From contig JADFYJ010000002.1 in NCBI GenBank assembly GCA_015233115.1, forward strand, positions 38,016 to 102,015: 64,000 bases of DNA, in the 5' to 3' direction. The stretch is from Candidatus Omnitrophota bacterium (GTDB taxonomy: Bacteria > Omnitrophota > Gorgyraeia > Zapsychrales > Zapsychraceae). The notes under the pieces are model-generated. The model worked only from the letters and a program-made list of their open reading frames with translations, was not told where the DNA came from and did not search any database. Positions 4,098-64,000 of this stretch are shown piece by piece. Both the position numbers and the translations under genes were made by a program. Numbering within the stretch: the stretch's first letter is position 1; each line of letters opens with the position of its first letter.

Positions 4098-4227
4098 GTA
4101 GGGGCGATCTCCCGATCGCCCGCTTACAAAATATTCGCTTTTTTATTTCAATAAAACAAACAAAAAAACCTGAAATGTTAAATTTATAAATCTTTTATAG
4201 TGCGGGCGATCGGGAGATCGCCCCTAC
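4098..4227. mobile_element. MITE-like element, family A (~130 bp, 26-bp perfect terminal inverted repeats)
   Basis: gtaggggcgatctcccgatcgcccgc, then an ~80-bp AT-rich core, then gcgggcgatcgggagatcgcccctac. About 90% identical to the copy at ~38326-38468. Each TIR is itself internally palindromic. Confidence 0.7.
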
Positions 4228-5170: not shown

Positions 5171-5398
5171 GTCACAAGGACACAAAGTCACAAGGTCACA
5201 AATAAAAATAAAAGTACAAAATAAAAAAACGACTGGTAAGCAGTTAACACCGAAGATAACTCAAACTGGTGATAAAATTTTGTTACATGTTTGACAAGTT
5301 ATGACTTTGCGTATATTTTTTTTGGCATTATTATTCGTTTTTTCCGAATCTTTTCTATCCTTTGTGACCTTGTGACCTTGTGACTTTGTGACTTTGTC
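5171..5398. repeat. IR-flanked intergenic element, family B (TIRs are tandem gtcacaaR octamers)
   Basis: Left arm ggtcacaaggacacaaagtcacaaggtcacaa. Right arm cctttgtgaccttgtgaccttgtgactttgtgactttgtc. About 160-bp AT-rich core. The right arm supplies the stop codon of the large REC-domain gene. Confidence 0.6.
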
Positions 5399-8832: not shown

Positions 8833-8942
8833 ATTTTTGCCCCCTTCTATAATAATCGGCCTACACTGAAAATATATACTATATTTGGAGAAAAACAAGA
8901 GCTGTAGGAAGATTATAAGAAAGCGGTTACAATAAAAAGTTA

Positions 8943-8973
8943 TAAAGGTGGTAAAGGTATAAAGGTGATAAAG
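8943..8973. repeat. tandem nonamer repeat (taaaggtgR x3.5), family G
   Basis: ataaaggtggtaaaggtataaaggtgataaagg. The reverse complement recurs at ~61366-61395. Confidence 0.4.
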
Positions 8974-8983
8974 GAAAATAAAA

Positions 8984-9884: not shown

Positions 9885-10097
9885 TAGTTTTATTCATCCT
9901 CCATAACTAAAGTTAATTTTATATCGCAAATCCCTATTCATGCGTGTAAGGCATAAACAGAAAGTACTTTCTCATCTCCCTTTAAATATTTTAGCGTTAA
10001 ATACCTAACTAATTTACAACATTCGGATTATTAGTTGAGGTCCTTATCGATAAACCCTCCTTTTATTAGGTTAACCAAACCCGCAATCTGGGTCAAT

Positions 10098-11227: not shown

Positions 11228-11244
11228 TTTCTACGAGGGCTCTT

Positions 11245-11916
11245 ATGAAACTCTGGGGCGCAGTCGTCGCAATATTATATGTTTTTATTTTGCTATTCCT
11301 ATTTGCTCCGCTTTCGGCATTTCTGTTGTCTTCTAGTAATTCCCCCATTTCGGCACAAACTATTCTTTCCGTCTATAATTCAGCTGGTGTCAGTTTATGG
11401 TATTTCGCCGCAGTCATGCTTATCGCAGAAAGCGCACTCTTATCTATACCTGTCAGTATTAACGAAAACAGGCCCATAAATAAACGATCAATTATTCCCC
11501 TTGCCCTTGCCTCTTCACTAATGATGACCCTTTTATTGACCGGAATGCTGTTAACGCTATGTGAAGTTTTTGCACCAAAATTATCCGGTGGGACTCAAAA
11601 CGGAAGATTTTTTTTAATCTTATGCGCAGTGCTTTGGATTTTTTGGTCCATTATCTTTTTTCTTTGGAGCAAGAAAAATGAACCGATGCCCTTTATTAAA
11701 ACATTATGCCGGTTATTATACCGGGGAAGTATTTTAGAATTATTGATAGCTGTTCCATCTCATATCTATGTAAGACAAAGGAATGAATGTTGCGCCGGCA
11801 TTGGCACATTTATCGGAATAGCCGCGGGTATTTCCGTCATGCTCTTTTCGTTCGGTCCCGGTGTATTTTTTCTCTTTAAAGAACGATTAGAACATCTCAC
11901 CAAAAAATCTAAATAA
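11245..11916 (+). CDS. hypothetical polytopic membrane protein
   Basis: Several predicted TM helices, 17 nt downstream of the tRNA. No motif recognised. Confidence 0.45.
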   Translation: MKLWGAVVAILYVFILLFLFAPLSAFLLSSSNSPISAQTILSVYNSAGVSLWYFAAVMLIAESALLSIPVSINENRPINKRSIIPLALASSLMMTLLLTGMLLTLCEVFAPKLSGGTQNGRFFLILCAVLWIFWSIIFFLWSKKNEPMPFIKTLCRLLYRGSILELLIAVPSHIYVRQRNECCAGIGTFIGIAAGISVMLFSFGPGVFFLFKERLEHLTKKSK

Positions 11917-12034
11917 AAATTTAATTTTTTTGCTAATAATTTTCCATCTTCAACAGTTTTTTATGTATCGTAGGACTTTTTTAAATTGTCAATTGGTCAT
12001 TTTTATTTAGTTTTTGTCCCATCAATCGCTTTTT

Positions 12035-12069
12035 CTTTGTTACTCTGTTACTCTGTCACTCTGTTACTT
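12035..12069. repeat. solo arm of family C repeat (tandem gttactcN heptamers)
   Basis: ctttgttactctgttactctgtcactctgttactt, preceded by cccatcaatcgctttt as at ~14651. Overlaps the radC stop codon. Confidence 0.5.
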
Positions 12070-12755: not shown

Positions 12756-12827
12756 ACTTCTCCCTTGTAATTCTAGGGAAGTATCTTGGTGGGGAAATGT
12801 GAGGAAAATTAATTATATCAAGTGAAA

Positions 12828-12981
12828 GGTCAGAAGTCAAACGTCAGACGATAAATAAGGGATGTGGGGCAAAAACGATTGCGTGAAAAACGATAATTTT
12901 GTTGCGGGAGATCAGGAGATCTCCCCTACGAAAAAAACGAATATCTTATTTCGCCTTTAAACTATTTTCCCTTTGTGACCT
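12828..12981. repeat. composite of repeat fragments (family B-like arms flanking a family A right TIR)
   Basis: ggtcagaagtcaaacgtcagacg ... gcgggagatcaggagatctcccctacg ... cctttgtgacc. Confidence 0.45.
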
Positions 12982-13006
12982 AAATAAGTTGGTTTCACAT
13001 ATACGA

Positions 13007-14324: not shown

Positions 14325-14697
14325 TTATAGTAACCGAGTAACAAAGTAACAGAGCAAAAGCAAAAAACTATTGGTTTAAAAAACATAAAACCAAAAAGCC
14401 AGATTAACCGAATAACAAAGAAACCGAGCGAAAGTAGAAAACGATTGGTTTAAAACATACAAAACAAAAAAATCATAACTAAAAATTAATTTGAAAAAAT
14501 CAAATAAAGTAACATAAAAATCGTATTGAAAAACTTTGATAAAACAACTCGTAAACATCACTGTCTTTTATCTTTTAAAACCAATATTCCCATTCGTATT
14601 TAAATTTTTTCACCAATCTTTTTTTTCGCTGCCACTTTGACACGTTTTGTTTTTCACCCATCGCTTTTACTCTGTTACTCGGTTACTCGGTCACTTT
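14325..14697. mobile_element. IR-flanked element, family C (~370 bp)
   Basis: Left arm agtaaccgagtaacaaagtaacagag. Right arm ctctgttactcggttactcggtcact. Internal direct repeats aacNattggtttaaaa(a)cataNaaaac. The right arm encodes the last 6 codons and stop of tsaD. Confidence 0.6.
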
Positions 14698-24291: not shown

Positions 24292-24450
24292 ACGTATATA
24301 GTATGTGGTATGTGGTATGTGGTATATCGTAAAAACGAGAATTAATAATTTTGATCAAACGACAAAAAAAACGTATTTTATTCCTAATAAATTCTTAATT
24401 TGTCTCACCAATCGTTTTTCACCACATACGACATACCACATACTACATGC
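24292..24450. repeat. IR-flanked element, family D (TIRs are tandem gtatgtR heptamers), empty copy
   Basis: Left arm gtatgtggtatgtggtatgtggtat. Right arm accacatacgacataccacatactacatg. About 95-bp AT-rich core. The right arm supplies the mfd stop and last codon. Confidence 0.6.
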
Positions 24451-26341
24451 CATTTTTATTAATTGTAACGTTTTTCTTCAAGTTTTCCACCGATTCTTTT
24501 AATAATCGGCAGTACAAATCAAACCCTATGCTGGCAATATATCCATGCTGTTCCTGTCCCAAAAGATTCCCCGCTCCCCTCAATTGCATATCTTCAAACG
24601 CAATCTTAAACCCTGCTCCTAATTCACTGTATTTTTCGATCGCGTCAATTCTCGCTTGGCTTTCCTGGCTTAATGATTTATAGGCCGGGATCAAAAAATA
24701 AGCATAGGCTTCGCGAGTGAATCTTCCAACGCGCCCGCGTAATTGATGCAAATCAGCCAAGCCAAAGTGATCAGCCCGGTTAATAATTAGCGTATTAGCA
24801 TTAGGAATATCTATTCCTGATTCGATAATAGTGGTCGAAACCAAAACATCAATCGAGCCATCTAAAAATTGCAGCATAATTTTTTCCAAATCACGCGCGG
24901 ACATTTGCCCATGCCCAATGGCTATCCTCGCTTGCGGGACCAAACGTTTGATGATTGCTCCTATGTGCGCAATATCTTCCACCCGGTTATGAATAAAAAA
25001 CATCTGCCCATGCCGTTTTAATTCCCTTTCAATAGCTTCTTTAATTAAATCTTCGTCAAATTCTCGGACAAACGTTTTAACCGGTAGACGTTTTTGCGGC
25101 GGCGTTGTGATCACAGACATATCTTTTGCCCCGACTAAAGACATATGCAAGGTTCGCGGAATAGGAGTCGCGCTTAATGTCAACACATCAGCCAAAAGGC
25201 GGAAATGTTTGAGCCGTTCTTTAGCCTTAACTCCAAAACGCTGTTCCTCATCAATAATAATCAATCCCAAATCTTTAAACGCGATATCTTTGGACAAAAG
25301 CCGGTGCGTCCCAATGACGACGTCAACCTGGCCATCCGCTAATTCAATAACCGTTTTTTGCTGTTCAGCTTTAGTCCTAAAACGGCTCAACATAGCCACG
25401 CGAACTGGATATTTTTCCATGCGTTTGACAAAATTATAATAATGCTGTTCCGCTAAAATCGTGGTTGGAACCAAAATGGCGACTTGTTTGTGGTCCATCA
25501 CGGCTTTAAAAACCGCCCGCATCGCTACTTCGGTTTTTCCAAAACCGACATCCCCGCACAGAAGCCGGTCCATGGGCAGTTCAGACTCCATATCTTTTTT
25601 AACATCCGTTATGGCTTTTTTTTGATCATCCGTCTCTTCAAAAGGAAAACCTTTTTCAAAATCTTTTTGCCATGGAGTATCAAGAGAAAATGAATGTCCA
25701 CGCAAACTGGCACGCATAGCTTGAGTATGCAATAATTCCGCCGCCATTCTCTGCAAACGTTTTTGAATCTGTTGTTTAAGCCTTTTCCATTCCGGACTGC
25801 CGAGTTTATAAATCCGCGGCGGCCGTTTGTTAAAACTTAAGTATTTTTGAATCAGATGAATATCATGTTTGGGGACGAATAATTTATCTCCTCCCTGATA
25901 CTCAATAACAAAATGTTCTTTAACTTCATCACGGATCTCAATGGTTTGCAAACCGATGAAGCGGCCAATACCGTGATAATTATGGACAACATAATCGCCT
26001 TTTTGAATATCGACAAAATTATTAAGAGGAACGTCTTCAGAAAAAACCGCATTTTTGTTTTCAGGTTTATGAGGCAGGATAATCGCGATCTTGTGTTCCC
26101 AGATCACCTTACCGGAACGGATATTGACACTGGCAATTTTTTGGATCTTCTCATCATCAAAATCAACTCGGATAGGACCGTCAAAATTGACGGGATATAT
26201 TTGCAGAATTTCACCGTGGTGGGCATACTCGCCTTCCTTTAAGGCGTGCCGCACATGCTGGTAATGCATGGCCGCCAAATTGTTGAGGACAATATCCAGG
26301 GCAATCGTCTGTCCAACGAAAAGTTCGAGTGATTGGAACAT
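24443..26341 (-). CDS. mfd: transcription-repair coupling factor, short form lacking UvrB-homology module
   Basis: CarD/TRCF RNAP-interaction domain (GDYVVHNYHGIGRF). SF2 helicase motifs (GDVGFGKTEVAMRA, DEEQRFGV). C-terminal TRCF domain. 632 aa, with only 44 nt to the upstream gene. Confidence 0.8.
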   Translation of the reverse strand: MFQSLELFVGQTIALDIVLNNLAAMHYQHVRHALKEGEYAHHGEILQIYPVNFDGPIRVDFDDEKIQKIASVNIRSGKVIWEHKIAIILPHKPENKNAVFSEDVPLNNFVDIQKGDYVVHNYHGIGRFIGLQTIEIRDEVKEHFVIEYQGGDKLFVPKHDIHLIQKYLSFNKRPPRIYKLGSPEWKRLKQQIQKRLQRMAAELLHTQAMRASLRGHSFSLDTPWQKDFEKGFPFEETDDQKKAITDVKKDMESELPMDRLLCGDVGFGKTEVAMRAVFKAVMDHKQVAILVPTTILAEQHYYNFVKRMEKYPVRVAMLSRFRTKAEQQKTVIELADGQVDVVIGTHRLLSKDIAFKDLGLIIIDEEQRFGVKAKERLKHFRLLADVLTLSATPIPRTLHMSLVGAKDMSVITTPPQKRLPVKTFVREFDEDLIKEAIERELKRHGQMFFIHNRVEDIAHIGAIIKRLVPQARIAIGHGQMSARDLEKIMLQFLDGSIDVLVSTTIIESGIDIPNANTLIINRADHFGLADLHQLRGRVGRFTREAYAYFLIPAYKSLSQESQARIDAIEKYSELGAGFKIAFEDMQLRGAGNLLGQEQHGYIASIGFDLYCRLLKESVENLKKNVTINKNGM

Positions 26342-35866: not shown

Positions 35867-36002
35867 GTATGTCGTACGTAGTATGTGGTATGTAGCGAAA
35901 AAAATCAAAATAATATTTTTAAAAAACTGGATTCCCACCTTCGCGGGAATGACAAGTCTAATCGTTTTTCGCTCTACATACGCATACCACATACTACATA
36001 CC
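35867..36002. repeat. IR-flanked element, family D, empty copy between hisH and hisB
   Basis: Left arm gtatgtcgtacgtagtatgtggtatgtagc. Right arm ctctacatacgcataccacatactacatacc. Internal attccc-acct-tcgc-gggaat hairpin. Confidence 0.6.
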
Positions 36003-36619: not shown

Positions 36620-36637
36620 ATGTTTTGTCCTATAAAA

Positions 36638-37073
36638 GTATGTGGTATGTAGTATGTCGTATGTAGTAAAAACTACAATTTTTTAATCAAAGCCTTTGTC
36701 ATTTTAGATACAGATTCGAGATCTTGCAATATCGGTTTCGATAATTCAGATTTTAAAAAACCTAATTCTACTGAAATTATAACCTGTGTTTCTAACTCAG
36801 CAACTGAACCCATAACAATATATAAAAACTGTCGATTTTTTTATTATGATATCTTCTAAAACCTTCTGCGATATTTGATGGTATCGAGATGGCTGCCCTT
36901 CGCATTTGAGATACTAATCCAAACTGTTCTTCTTGAGGATAATTTTTTGTGACTTTATAAATATTTTTTACTATTTCAACACCAAACTTCCAAATTCTTA
37001 AATCCTGATAAGTTGTTATCTTTTCGTCCATTGCTTTCCCACCACATACGACATACCACATACTACATACTAT
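36638..37073. mobile_element. IR-flanked element, family D, loaded copy carrying a four-helix-bundle protein gene
   Basis: Left arm gtatgtggtatgtagtatgtcgtatgtagta. Right arm accacatacgacataccacatactacatact. Same TIR family as the empty copies at ~24292 and ~35867. Confidence 0.6.
36680..37061 (-). pseudogene. four-helix-bundle protein (23S rRNA intervening-sequence protein family), frameshifted
   Basis: The track ORF 36792-37061 ends at ...AISIPSNIAEGFRRYHNKKIDSFYILLWVQLLS. The +2 frame continues QFLYIVMGSVAELETQVIISVELGFL...KMTKALIKKL, which is the conserved C-terminal half (GSxxELETQ). A single-nucleotide indel lies in the aaaaaaatcgacagttttt tract. Confidence 0.7.
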
Positions 37074-38299: not shown

Positions 38300-38325
38300 T
38301 GTCTTGGAAATCCTTGTAAAGTGTT

Positions 38326-38468
38326 GTAGGGGCGATCTCCCGATCGCCCGCTTACAAAATATACGCTTTTTTATCTAGATAAAACAAACAAAAAAACTAA
38401 ACCTAAAAACCCTGGAATGTTAAATTTGTAAATCTTTTTGGTACGGGCGATCAGGAGATCGCCCCTAC
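38326..38468. mobile_element. MITE-like element, family A (~143 bp, 26-bp TIRs)
   Basis: gtaggggcgatctcccgatcgcccgc, then an AT-rich core, then gtacgggcgatcaggagatcgcccctac. Sibling of the copy at ~4098. Confidence 0.7.
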
Positions 38469-38475
38469 GACCAAG

Positions 38476-50163: not shown

Positions 50164-50215
50164 TTTTAACTCCTGCTTAATGATTAAATTTTTCTTTGTG
50201 ACCCTGTGACTTTGC

Positions 50216-56180: not shown

Positions 56181-56422
56181 ACTCTCCCCGAATCTTTTAT
56201 ACACGGAACACAACACAAATTTCAGTGGCTGATTTTTAGTTTTTGGTTTTTAGAAAAAAATATATTTGATTAGCAACAACAACCAACCAACGACCAACAA
56301 CCAGTATTACTGTATTGTGCCCCAAGTTTTAAGATTGCATATGTATCTTATGTAAAAAAAAACAATAAGTCTATAATATTCTAAAAAATTTTTTGCTTTG
56401 TGCAAATGAATCCTCCTACTCA

Positions 56423-57517: not shown

Positions 57518-57586
57518 TTCATTTGGAATATTTGGTTTTTAATTTTTAACACCAATCATTTTTTTGACTTTATGACTTTACGTTTT

Positions 57587-58706: not shown

Positions 58707-58790
58707 GTTATCCTTTTGAAAGTAACCGAGTAACAGAGTAGCAGAGAAACAAAGCAAAAAAATAAAGTATCTAAAAACCAACCACTATTT
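58707..58790. repeat. solo left arm of family C repeat
   Basis: agtaaccgagtaacagagtagcagagaaacaaagcaaaaaa, which matches agtaaccgagtaacaaagtaacagagcaaaagcaaaaaa at 14331. Confidence 0.55.
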
Positions 58791-61275: not shown

Positions 61276-61365
61276 ATAAGTTCTTTCTCAAATTTTTATT
61301 CAGGAGGGTCGGGGACCCTCCCCTACGCTTTCTTTTCTCACTAATCGTTTTTTATCATTTTTTTT

Positions 61366-61395
61366 TCCTTTACCACCTTTATACCCTTACCACCT
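61366..61395. repeat. family G tandem nonamer repeat (reverse complement of the 8943 copy)
   Basis: cctttaccacctttatacccttaccaccttta. Overlaps the uvrA stop and the last codons. Confidence 0.4.
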
Positions 61396-64000
61396 TTAGC
61401 ACTTTTTTCAAATACTGTCCTGTATAAGATTTCGGACATTGCGCGACTTCTTCAGGTGTTCCGGTCGCCATGACTTCCCCACCTCGATCTCCGCCTTCCG
61501 GACCGAGATCAATAATATAATCGGCATTTTTAACTACATCCAAATTGTGCTCGATAATTAAAACTGTATTTCCCAGCCCAACTAACCTTTGCAGGACCTC
61601 CAATAATTTTTCTACGTCCGCGAAATGCAAACCTGTGGTTGGCTCATCTAAAATATAAAACGTCTGCCCGGTCGAATGCTTACATAATTCGCTGGCCAGC
61701 TTAACCCGCTGGGCTTCTCCGCCGGATAAGGTGGTCGCGCTCTGACCGAGTTTAATATACCCTAAACCCACATCATTCAAAGTTTCCAGAACCCGTCGTA
61801 TCTTAGGAACATTTTCAAATATAGCAAGACCTTCCGTCACCGATGTATTAAGGATATCATTAATGTTTTTCCCTTTAAACTGAACTTCCAAAGTCTGATC
61901 ATTAAACCGGCGGCCGCCGCACACTTCGCATTGAACATAAACATCCGGCAAAAAATGCATCTCAATTTTTTTAATTCCGTCGCCGTTACATGCTTCGCAC
62001 CGCCCCCCTTTGACATTAAAACTGAAACGTCCCGGTTTATATCCCCGCAATTTTGATTCGGGCATCATGGTAAAAACATTACGGATATGGTCAAAAACAC
62101 CGGTGTAAGTGGCTGGATTGGAGCGCGGGGTCCGTCCGATCGGCGACTGGTCCACTACAATAAATTTATCAATCCATTCCATGCCGGTTATTTTCTTTAC
62201 CTTGCCTGGCTGGTCTTTTGACCCATAAAATTTCTGCGCAAGTGATTTATGAATAATATCATCCACCAACGTCGATTTTCCAGAACCGGATACTCCGGTA
62301 ATACACGTAAAAGTTCCTAAAGGAATCGATAGATTAATATCTTTAAGATTATGTTCCGCTGCCCCCAATATTTTTAATTGTTTCTTTGGATCAATCGGGC
62401 GCCGTGTAGCAGGAGTTGAAATAAATTTTTTACCGCTTAAATACTGGCCAGTCAAAGAAGTTTCCGATTTCAGCAAAGCAGGAACATCTCCTTCAAAGAT
62501 AATCTCGCCTCCAAATTCACCGGCACCCGGACCTAGGTCAATCACATGATCAGAACGACGAATGGTTTCTTCATCATGCTCAACCACGATCAAACTATTG
62601 CCCATATCCCGCAAGGCATGCAAAGTTGATAATAAACGGTCATTATCCCGTTGGTGCAAACCAATACTCGGTTCATCCAAAATATATATCACGCCAACCA
62701 GCCCTGACCCCACTTGAGTAGCTAAACGGATCCGTTCTGCTTCCCCGCCTGATAATGTACCGCTCCGACGGTCTAAGGTTAAATAGTCAAGCCCAACATT
62801 AATGCAAAAATCCAAACGGCGGATGATCTCTTTTAAAATCTGAGCGCTGATAATCTGCTGATCTTTGGTCAGCTTTAGTTCCTGGAAAAATTTTTTCGCT
62901 TCCTTGATTGAAAGCTGAGATACTTCCGAAATATTCTTATCATTAATTCTAACCGCCAAAGATTCTTTTTTTAAACGAGCGCCGCCGCAAGAAGGACATG
63001 GCTTTAAGGACATATACTGGCTAATTTCGTCCTGCAGCCATTCACTGTCAGTATCCTGAAACATCCGTTCCAGATAACGTAAAATACCCTCAAATTGCCT
63101 GCCCCAGATTTCATCATCTGAACCGTGCAATATAATTTTCTTAAACGCCGGTTTCAAATCTTGATATGGAGTATAAGGATCAAACCCATGCAATCCGGCA
63201 ATTTCCCGCATCACAGCACGGTAATACATTAAATAATTACGCCGGCCCCGTTTCGAGGGCGCGATCGCGTTGATCCAGGGCTTGGTTTCATCTGGAATTA
63301 AAATATCCGGATCGATTTCCATGCGCGTGCCTAACCCGTTACAGGTCGGACAAGCACCGTAAGGAGAATTAAATGAAAAGGTACGCGGTTCGATCTCCAC
63401 AATACTAATCCCACAGTCGACACAGGCAAAATGTTCACTAAAAATTCGATCAGCCAGCTTACCTTGTTCTTCGACGGACACAATAATCAACCCCTTGCCC
63501 GCGTCCAAAGCAGTTTCAATCGAATCAGTCAGACGCTTGCGGGTTTCAGGTTTTATCGTGATGCGGTCAACAACTACTTCAATATTATGGACTTTAAATT
63601 TGTCCATCTTAATTTCATCTTCAGTTGTGTATATCTGCCCGTCTACCCGCAAACGTGAATAACCCGCTTTCGTGACCTCAGAAGCAATCTTGCGATATTC
63701 CCCTTTGCGTCCACGAATTAAAGGCGCCAAAATAACAATCTTGGTTCCTTCTTTATAGGAAAATAATTGTTCCACAATTTCTTGTGAATGCTGACGCTCG
63801 ATTTTTTTACCGCAATTCGGGCAATACGCTGTCCCGATACGCGCGAATAATAAACGCAGATAATCATTAATCTCAGTCTGAGTCGCTACGGTAGAACGGG
63901 GATTCTTACTGGTGGTCTTTTGTTCGATGGAAATTGTCGGAGATAATCCGTCAATAGATTCAATATTCGGTTTCTGCAATTGTTCCAAAAACTGCCGGGC
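61379..64000 (-). CDS. uvrA: excinuclease ABC subunit A (C-terminal ~870 aa; N-terminus beyond window end)
   Basis: Zn-finger CPNCG, ABC signatures LSGGEAERIRLA and LSGGEAQRVKLA, Walker A GVSGSGKSTL. The track assigns the start to an in-frame TTG; the gene runs off the window. Confidence 0.95.
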   Translation of the reverse strand, partial: ARQFLEQLQKPNIESIDGLSPTISIEQKTTSKNPRSTVATQTEINDYLRLLFARIGTAYCPNCGKKIERQHSQEIVEQLFSYKEGTKIVILAPLIRGRKGEYRKIASEVTKAGYSRLRVDGQIYTTEDEIKMDKFKVHNIEVVVDRITIKPETRKRLTDSIETALDAGKGLIIVSVEEQGKLADRIFSEHFACVDCGISIVEIEPRTFSFNSPYGACPTCNGLGTRMEIDPDILIPDETKPWINAIAPSKRGRRNYLMYYRAVMREIAGLHGFDPYTPYQDLKPAFKKIILHGSDDEIWGRQFEGILRYLERMFQDTDSEWLQDEISQYMSLKPCPSCGGARLKKESLAVRINDKNISEVSQLSIKEAKKFFQELKLTKDQQIISAQILKEIIRRLDFCINVGLDYLTLDRRSGTLSGGEAERIRLATQVGSGLVGVIYILDEPSIGLHQRDNDRLLSTLHALRDMGNSLIVVEHDEETIRRSDHVIDLGPGAGEFGGEIIFEGDVPALLKSETSLTGQYLSGKKFISTPATRRPIDPKKQLKILGAAEHNLKDINLSIPLGTFTCITGVSGSGKSTLVDDIIHKSLAQKFYGSKDQPGKVKKITGMEWIDKFIVVDQSPIGRTPRSNPATYTGVFDHIRNVFTMMPESKLRGYKPGRFSFNVKGGRCEACNGDGIKKIEMHFLPDVYVQCEVCGGRRFNDQTLEVQFKGKNINDILNTSVTEGLAIFENVPKIRRVLETLNDVGLGYIKLGQSATTLSGGEAQRVKLASELCKHSTGQTFYILDEPTTGLHFADVEKLLEVLQRLVGLGNTVLIIEHNLDVVKNADYIIDLGPEGGDRGGEVMATGTPEEVAQCPKSYTGQYLKKVLKVVRV

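Follow-up and report, generated by a model that had tools for sequence, protein, structure and literature searches.

We analysed a window of 64,000 nt from an Omnitrophota genome assembled from a metagenome, in which several intergenic elements end in inverted arrays of tandem 7–9-mers. We conclude, with a probability of about 0.7, that these elements belong to a family of compact cassettes of ∼0.15–0.5 kb, which would be the operon-embedded counterparts of the intervening sequences (IVS) of 23S rRNA, with a stem looping the insert out. A full cassette is made of a 5′ array of 3–5 tandem 7-mers (sometimes 8- or 9-mers), a gene for a four-helix-bundle (4HB) protein of the PF05635 family and an inverted array. 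The window holds one decayed cassette that bears the gene (E5), four gene-less derivatives (E1–E4) and solo arms. The five paired elements are as follows.

E1 (the locus reported first), 5171–5397, minus strand: gene-less; arms of GTCACAAR 8-mers at 5171–5202 and 5362–5397; fold z = −6.9.
E2, 14329–14695, minus strand: gene-less, in the spacer between tsaD and an MgtC-family gene; arms of GTAACNGA 8-mers at 14329–14354 and 14667–14695; fold z = −6.7.
E3, 24296–24452, minus strand: gene-less, in the spacer between an Mfd-like and a SurA-like gene; GTATGTN 7-mers at 24301–24325 and 24421–24452; fold −58.2 kcal/mol, z = −7.2.
E4, 35867–36001, minus strand: gene-less, in the hisB/hisH spacer; arms of GTATGTN 7-mers at 35974–36001 and 35867–35895; fold z = −7.6.
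E5, 36637–37070, minus strand: gene-bearing, in the hisD/hisB spacer; GTATGTN heptamers, with the 5′ arm (in mRNA sense) at 37041–37070 and the 3′ arm at 36637–36668.

The arrays were called with Tandem Repeats Finder and an inverted-repeat search, and these calls agreed with direct reading of the sequence. Using a strict criterion (period 7–9, at least 3 copies, score of at least 40), we observed 12 arrays of period 7–9 in the window, whereas 100 dinucleotide-preserving shuffles yielded a mean of 0.04 (maximum 1); strict inverted pairs numbered 3 in the window and 0 in the shuffles. The inverted arms of the paired elements measured 19–55 nt in the inverted-repeat search. A preliminary description of this DNA had placed arrays, five paired elements and solo arms at these coordinates, and both the sequence reading and Tandem Repeats Finder located them there. 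The observation was thus confirmed.

All the arrays of these families fall in the intergenic 8.7% of the window. The earlier statement that the elements are intergenic and avoid disrupting open reading frames (ORFs) was borne out, although two ORF ends run into arrays. The tsaD ORF (14675–14695) and the Mfd-like ORF (24443–24452) have their final codons, stop codon included, inside 5′ arrays, so that the arrays contribute C-terminal residues to host proteins. Nearly every gene of the window is on the minus strand. Read on this strand, the 5′ arms start at, or a few nucleotides past, the stop codon of the upstream gene (E1 begins directly after the stop codon of a 1205-aa response-regulator-domain gene), and the 3′ arms finish just short of the next gene's ribosome-binding site. 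The elements sit within operons, for example in the order hisD|E5|hisB|E4|hisH.

The preliminary description had given every element an AT-rich core. This does not hold for the element at 36637–37070, the core of which is a frameshifted gene.

36673–37031, minus strand: frameshifted gene for a 23S rRNA-IVS/4HB protein (PF05635, TIGR02436).

The frame of this gene breaks at a run of seven A residues (36836–36842), and one added A restores it, giving a product of 119 aa. The break could be due to decay of the gene into a pseudogene, to a homopolymer assembly error in the metagenome-assembled genome (MAG), or to a site of transcriptional or ribosomal slippage. The frame-corrected protein matched PF05635 with E = 2e-35 (121.5 bits; cut-off 33.8), TIGR02436 with E = 1.5e-33 (115.2 bits; cut-off 24) and NF008911 with 137.9 bits (cut-off 137), and its gene is the sole 4HB match in the window. 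Matches to models of Avd were also seen (PF22296, E = 3.5e-5; NF033474, E = 1.8e-5), with scores under the cut-offs (24.7 versus 40 and 25 versus 80, respectively). A full HMMER scan sorted the PF05635 family into 23,748 clusters at 50% identity, and the polar motif RRxxxSxPSNxAEG is invariant across it. The solved members in PDB entries 2GSC and 2RLD have 5 chains each, and the title of the 2GSC paper (Lin et al. 2006, cited in PMC10053308) refers to a quaternary structure of five four-helix bundles. Many of the database members (P0241–P0390) are 146–185 aa long, with the homologous part beginning at residue 28–65; gene callers may have extended these longer ORFs upstream through the arrays.

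The same design was observed at other loci that encode this protein. We assembled a genome set of 80 loci holding the closest relatives of the corrected protein (50–64% identity), taken from MAGs labelled Planctomycetota, Atribacterota, Omnitrophota, Nitrospirae, Thermodesulfobacteriota, Clostridia, Paludibacter (a genus of Bacteroidota) and others, and a second set of metagenome loci for a subfamily seeded from the his operon of a relative. Both sets, 160 loci together, were picked by homology to the 4HB protein. In the genome set, a tandem array was present within 150 nt upstream of the gene in 66/80 loci, downstream in 64/80 and on both sides in 53/80. Period 7 was dominant, and the downstream unit was the reverse complement of the upstream one (match 0.7–1.0). 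Period-7 arrays had a density of 6.1 per kb beside the 4HB gene versus 0.35 per kb elsewhere in the same loci, an 18-fold difference. In the second subfamily, arrays were found upstream in 54/71 and downstream in 63/75, with a period that was mostly 7 and sometimes 8, so that E1 and E2 are no exceptions in having 8-mer arms. Across the 160 loci, ∼80% of the 4HB genes carry arrays on each side, in inverted orientation.

The placement was equally regular over these 160 loci. The upstream neighbour was codirectional with the cassette in 124/134 cases and the downstream neighbour in 115/133; the 5′ array starts at a median of 2 nt past the stop codon (interquartile range −1.5 to 9), and between the end of the 3′ array and the next in-frame start codon the median distance is 14 nt. 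Within one array, about five unit positions are invariant and about two are variable. The number of units per array was broadly 3–5 in both sets, with no sharp mode at five and with outliers of up to 21. Very long 3′ arrays of 14–21 units were present in three loci (L084, 1974–2075; L089, 1854–2020; L148, 859–1000), which indicates that arrays are able to expand greatly. Composite arms with two unit types were seen in L116, L123, L128, L130, L133, L136, L141–L143, L149, L153, L158 and L159; in such cassettes, the 5′ arm interleaves TAGTCGT with TAGTGAA and both complements occur in the 3′ arm, which suggests nested or fused ends.

A cultured example comes from a plasmid of Nostoc edaphicum, having (AGTAGGG)x8 upstream and (TCCCTAC)x5 downstream of the 4HB gene. 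On pNe_5 of this organism (L166, 259376–259744), a 4HB cassette lies between the genes for the ribonucleotide reductase alpha domain and beta subunit and is antisense to both; as the arms are symmetric, it would still fold as a hairpin in the operon transcript. No relatives were found on viral contigs. The cassette architecture is very widespread, and we found no description of the general association between arrays and 4HB genes in the openly searchable full-text literature; subscription journals were outside this search, so that a prior description is possible.

Next, we considered whether the arrays mark the ends of a mobile unit. In many cassette pairs the genes are at least 90% identical while the flanks are unrelated, and here the homology is bounded on both sides by the outer edges of the two arrays. 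For example, within one Atribacterota MAG, the loci L054 and L063 could be aligned over 2398–2892, and the arrays of L054 span 2404–2894. The unit sequence follows the protein identity, being the same above ∼70% and unrelated below 60%.

The HisB protein P0121, which is 100% identical to that of the window, places the window in a Candidatus Omnitrophica MAG; a Legionellales or Coxiella-like gammaproteobacterium, considered because of the GC content and small palindromes, was rejected on this ground. Exact-protein look-ups of the HisB and HisD of the window and of P0121 gave no hits. We also compared the his operon of the window with the same operon in two Omnitrophota relatives, L081 and L082. 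The hisB|hisH junction is occupied by E4 in the window and is empty in L081 (TAAcacATG) and L082 (TAAggggaaacaATG). The hisH|hisA junction contains an intact 4HB cassette in L082, and the two genes overlap in the window. At the hisD|hisB junction, the window carries E5, L082 carries a solo heptamer array and L081 has an unrelated insert. The preliminary description had treated the arrays as the termini of mobile elements, and the homology ends at the outer array edges together with the empty sites in relatives supported this. Therefore, we concluded that the array–gene–array structure is a unit that has been copied between sites and has been both gained and lost between related genomes, and that this unit lies in the sense direction, after a stop codon and ahead of the ribosome-binding site that follows.

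A test of whether the element ends coincide with target-site duplications had also been proposed. Among 60 well-defined elements we saw no consistent direct repeat beside the arrays; the ends are fuzzy, so that short duplications are possible. The single hint of such a duplication is a GATTAAA repeat beside E4.

In L081, the hisH|hisA spacer (11240–11690) contains a gene for a DUF559 (Vsr-like) endonuclease flanked by the inverted repeats CCCTCTCCAGCCTCTGGGGAGAGGG...GGGTGAGGGG, and the palindrome that flanks it also occurs upstream of hisB (9950–10000). This represents another type of cassette, unrelated to the 4HB one, that lies between cistrons of that operon.

Sequences are shared among the elements of the window. 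The 5′ arms of E3 and E5 are identical over 26 nt. A sub-terminal box, AAAAACGATTGGTG, adjoins the arrays of E1–E4 and of three solo arms, always on the inner side of the array, and it does so beside 7-, 8- and 9-mers alike. The solo arms and the box copies of the window are listed here.

12020–12068 (array 12038–12068), minus strand: solo 5′-type arm with box; GTAACAGA, ∼4 units; starts at the radC stop codon.
61339–61406 (array 61367–61406), minus strand: solo 5′-type arm with box; TAAAGGTGR 9-mers, ∼4.6 units; overlaps the stop codon of the upstream gene.
57550–57583 (arm 57561–57580), minus strand: short solo 5′-type arm with box; AAAGTCAT, ∼2.5 units; 3 nt past a stop codon; weak by itself.
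50194–50215, minus strand: short solo arm; AAAGTCAC-type, ∼2 units; directly past the stop codon of the upstream gene; weak by itself.
58721–58751, minus strand: solo 3′-type arm; TCTGTTAC-type in mRNA sense; ends ∼17 nt before an ATG that has a ribosome-binding site.
8936–8974, minus strand: solo 3′-type arm; CACCTTTAT 9-mers (mRNA sense); a terminator-like hairpin lies upstream of it.
24406–24419, minus strand: sub-terminal box AAAAACGATTGGTG, exact copy.
5225, 12020, 14363, 14437, 14611, 14655, 35956, 57550 and 61339: copies of the box with up to 2–3 mismatches.

A search of the window with the box gave 28 matches versus 15.4 expected, and every match with no more than two mismatches abuts an array. 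As the same box adjoins arrays of all three unit lengths, the elements E1–E4 and the solo arms, which the preliminary description had divided into several families, form one superfamily. The descent of E1–E4 from gene-bearing cassettes is suggested by the arms shared among E3, E4 and E5 and by the shared architecture. Part of E2 (14331–14471) is an internal 74-bp tandem duplication (1.9 copies) that bears a second, degenerate arm and a sub-terminal box, and one side of this element thus has two nested ends. The core of E4 contains a nested small palindrome, GTCATTCCCGCGAAGGTGGGAATCC, at ∼35929–35953, which forms its own hairpin in the predicted fold. Rfam has no family that matches the elements of the window, and it found no rRNA in the window.

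From the predicted folds of E1–E5, we obtained z-scores of −5.4 to −7.6, and the arm duplexes had a mean stability of −36.7 kcal/mol versus −11.8 for shuffled arms. The predicted RNA fold of E5 (z = −5.4) has a stem of ∼35 bp around the whole ORF, with the hisD stop codon at the base of the stem and the hisB ribosome-binding site just past it. We infer that the arms pair in the polycistronic transcript as a stem of ∼25–35 bp, which would loop out the insert and bring the upstream stop codon beside the downstream start codon. With the insert looped out, the expression of the operon and its translational coupling would survive the insertion. By analogy with the homologous rRNA IVS, the stem is probably a substrate of RNase III. 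The 4HB protein forms a homopentamer in crystals and would probably act on the arrays.

Several observations weigh against this stem-cassette reading. Stem formation, RNase III cutting and coupling at these loci are all predictions from sequence. If selection acted on RNA, the sense duplex of the arms would be stabler than the antisense one owing to G–U pairs; we did not observe any significant difference between the two (p = 0.17), so that selection at the RNA level is indistinguishable from an inverted repeat maintained at the DNA level. The arms of one cassette pair only slightly better with each other than with foreign arms having the same unit (p = 0.087), and the variable unit positions are mismatched in many loci, which means that a perfect stem is not strongly selected. 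A stem also gives no reason for a tandem period of 7. As for the descent of E1–E4, the box AAAAACGATTGGTG was not found next to the arrays of any of the other 160 loci, and the tblastn matches of 4HB remnants in these four elements were at the level of chance (best E = 0.5–0.8).

Two other ideas about the arrays were considered and rejected. The arrays do not act as a three-frame stop of translation, since on inspection the common units AGTATCG, CGTATTG and CAATACG hold no stop triplet. A telomerase-like or target-duplication origin is contradicted by the inverted orientation, because duplication would yield direct arrays, and by the fact that the cassettes contain no reverse transcriptase gene.

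The tandem units could instead be mainly iterated binding sites of the 4HB homopentamer, the stem being secondary or acting as a competitor in a protein-controlled switch. Single-stranded RNA or DNA would then wind round the ring, each subunit reading a unit of 7 nt, like TRAP with its triplet repeats, and the solo arms would add further targets to what would be a regulon. This proposal is compatible with the stem-cassette reading, and we consider it possible but doubtful. The preliminary description had supposed that a dedicated repeat-binding protein may exist, and the pentameric 4HB protein of the full-length cassettes, as a putative binder, supplies a candidate. The five chains of 2GSC and 2RLD and the invariant polar motif are in keeping with such a role, and so is the resemblance of the five invariant and two variable positions of the units to a core plus spacer. 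The homologous protein Avd of diversity-generating retroelements works with RNA, according to PMC6182149 and bioRxiv 10.1101/2023.10.23.563531, and a binding partner has been postulated in work on the heptamer arrays of cyanobacteria. The gene and its arrays are inherited as one unit in which the unit sequence follows the protein identity, but linkage alone accounts for this. The units become unrelated below 60% protein identity even though the motif remains invariant, so that to recognize its units specifically, the protein would have to use a code, as yet undiscovered, in its variable residues. One genome has periods of 7, 8 and 9, and the broad spread of 3–5 units, with outliers to 21, is not what is expected from a ring of five. 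A correspondence of five units to five subunits is no more than a speculation: the apparent mode at 31–32 nt vanished when units were counted in both sets.

Two further explanations were considered, and we regard both as improbable. If the elements were ordinary miniature inverted-repeat transposable elements (MITEs) mobilized in trans by a transposase from another part of the genome, with the 4HB gene as a passive cargo, their small size, terminal inverted repeats, multiple copies and gene-less derivatives would be accounted for, as would the presence and absence of sites between relatives. However, a transposase needs conserved ends, and the termini differ completely between subfamilies; there is no associated transposase gene, no target-site duplication was seen in the 60 well-defined elements, and the strict stop-to-start placement in sense orientation also speaks against this reading. 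The cargo is always the same protein family in both locus sets; as these were picked by 4HB homology, they are unable to reveal any other cargo. Similarly, the hairpins could have been evolved by the host as mRNA stabilizers or operon punctuation, like REP (repetitive extragenic palindrome) sequences and bacterial interspersed mosaic elements (BIMEs), with arrays arising in place by replication slippage and 4HB genes landing in the loops later. Solo arrays do fill intercistronic spacers, as in hisD|hisB of L082, and the repeat number differs between Coxiella strains; heptanucleotides are also the commonest class of long simple repeats in many prokaryotes (Mrazek 2007, as summarized in PMC4679880). 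Slippage in place is opposed by the movement of arrays together with the gene between unrelated sites, by the empty sites from which whole elements with both arrays are missing, and by the 18-fold higher density of arrays beside 4HB genes than elsewhere in the same loci.

The stem-cassette reading, with the gene, the inverted arrays and the stop/start placement taken as one unit, ties the origin of the IVS to the role of the heptamers found near start codons in cyanobacteria and sulfur bacteria, and does so testably. The clear examples in cultured Nostoc strains make experiments feasible, and the PF05635 family, with its 23,748 clusters, has been without a known function since 1993. A far broader proposal, which we think unlikely, is that the PF05635 cassettes, including the classical rRNA IVS, are one very large, so far unrecognized class of mobile elements, the heptamer ends of which are read unit by unit, as RNA or DNA, by the pentamer to drive mobility or processing. 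If true, such reading would explain the 30-year-old puzzle of the origin of the IVS, supply the partner of the heptamer arrays of cyanobacteria and Beggiatoa, account for heptanucleotides being the most frequent of the long simple repeats in prokaryotes, and might give a modular, programmable repeat-reading protein. On the practical side, gene callers often extend 4HB ORFs and the ends of neighbouring ORFs into arrays.

A few other repeats were seen in the spacers of the window. Paired palindromes of a REP type tagged with GTAG ('family A'; GTAGGGGCGATCTCCCGATCGCCCGC with its reverse complement) occur at 4098–4227, 38323–38471 and ∼12925–12950. The alaS|hisD spacer, which holds a copy of this family, is 293 nt long in the window versus 44 nt in the relative L081, indicating that family A also varies between relatives. 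The spacer at 12756–13006 is composite: past the stop codon comes a single GGTCACAAAGGG, and the spacer also holds a family-A palindrome, a heptamer array of the TCTGACG type at 12820–12850 and the box in inverted form (ACGCAATCGTTTTT). A G/T-rich heptamer array (GGTTGTT, ∼4 units) at 56274–56303 lies upstream of the gene ending at 56216 and has neither an inverted partner nor a box. A GC-rich hairpin, GGGGAGGGTCCCCGACCCTCC, is present at 61300–61330, between the solo arm with box at 61339–61406 and the start codon that opens the next gene.

Finally, we compared the cassettes with known systems. The preliminary description had likened the arrays to iterons or to arrays of the transcription activator-like (TAL) type. 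Iterons are direct repeats of ∼17–22 bp beside a rep gene and an origin in plasmids, whereas the units of the window are 7–9 bp long, form inverted pairs and lie in chromosomal operons; the nearest relative is instead the 23S rRNA IVS. Avd of the diversity-generating retroelements is a homologous pentameric four-helix-bundle protein, but the E5 gene lies directly between hisD and hisB and has no adjacent reverse transcriptase gene and no pair of template and variable repeats. The Foldback (FB) transposons of eukaryotes have terminal inverted repeats composed of tandem short subrepeats, with far longer arms and a different or no coding capacity; their resemblance to the window cassettes is architectural only.

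Like MITEs, REP sequences, BIMEs and REPINs, the elements are small, repeated, intergenic, hairpin-forming and without a transposase, and they vary in presence between relatives. Unlike these, the cassettes have no conserved terminal sequence and no target duplication was seen beside them, and the full-length form encodes the 4HB protein and not a transposase or RAYT; no transposase was present inside any cassette. Tandem-oligomer termini are indeed unusual for bacterial MITEs, as had been remarked at the outset, and the label of an ordinary MITE does not fit elements for which neither a target-site duplication was seen nor an associated transposase was found.

The heptamer repeats of Beggiatoaceae, Cyanobacteria and Bacteroidetes (TAACTGA, MacGregor 2015; Nostoc) are likewise intergenic arrays of 2–6 tandem heptamers that mostly lie within a few nucleotides of a start codon and point the same way as the gene, and the solo arms of the window and of L082 look like them. 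Such repeats are defined as at least two tandem heptamers in an intergenic position near a start codon, with the orientation of the gene; the 3′ arms and solo arms fit this definition, with a unit that differs from TAACTGA; no TAACTGA arrays were present in any locus that we fetched. These repeats have been described as direct repeats only, without an inverted partner array or a link to 4HB genes, and the paper describing them (MacGregor 2015) makes no mention of the 4HB/IVS family of proteins.

The closest known relative is the IVS of 23S rRNA with its S23p/PF05635 ORF, as in Leptospira and Coxiella burnetii. The window elements differ from it in lying between protein-coding genes of operons and not inside 23S rRNA (helix 9, 25 or 45), in having both arms made wholly of tandem units, and in the existence of gene-less derivatives and solo arms. 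Excision by RNase III is experimental for the IVS of Coxiella, Leptospira and Salmonella (PMC4990558) and would be expected for the window cassettes from their predicted stems. In the Coxiella IVS, 3–4 tandem heptamers (GACAGAT) precede the S23p ORF, and RNase III cleaves where the first of them begins, midway along the stem (PMC4990558). Both systems share the protein family and the terminal inverted repeats that form a long stem (a predicted one in the cassettes) with an ORF in the loop, an arrangement that in the window is found in E5 alone, in frameshifted form.

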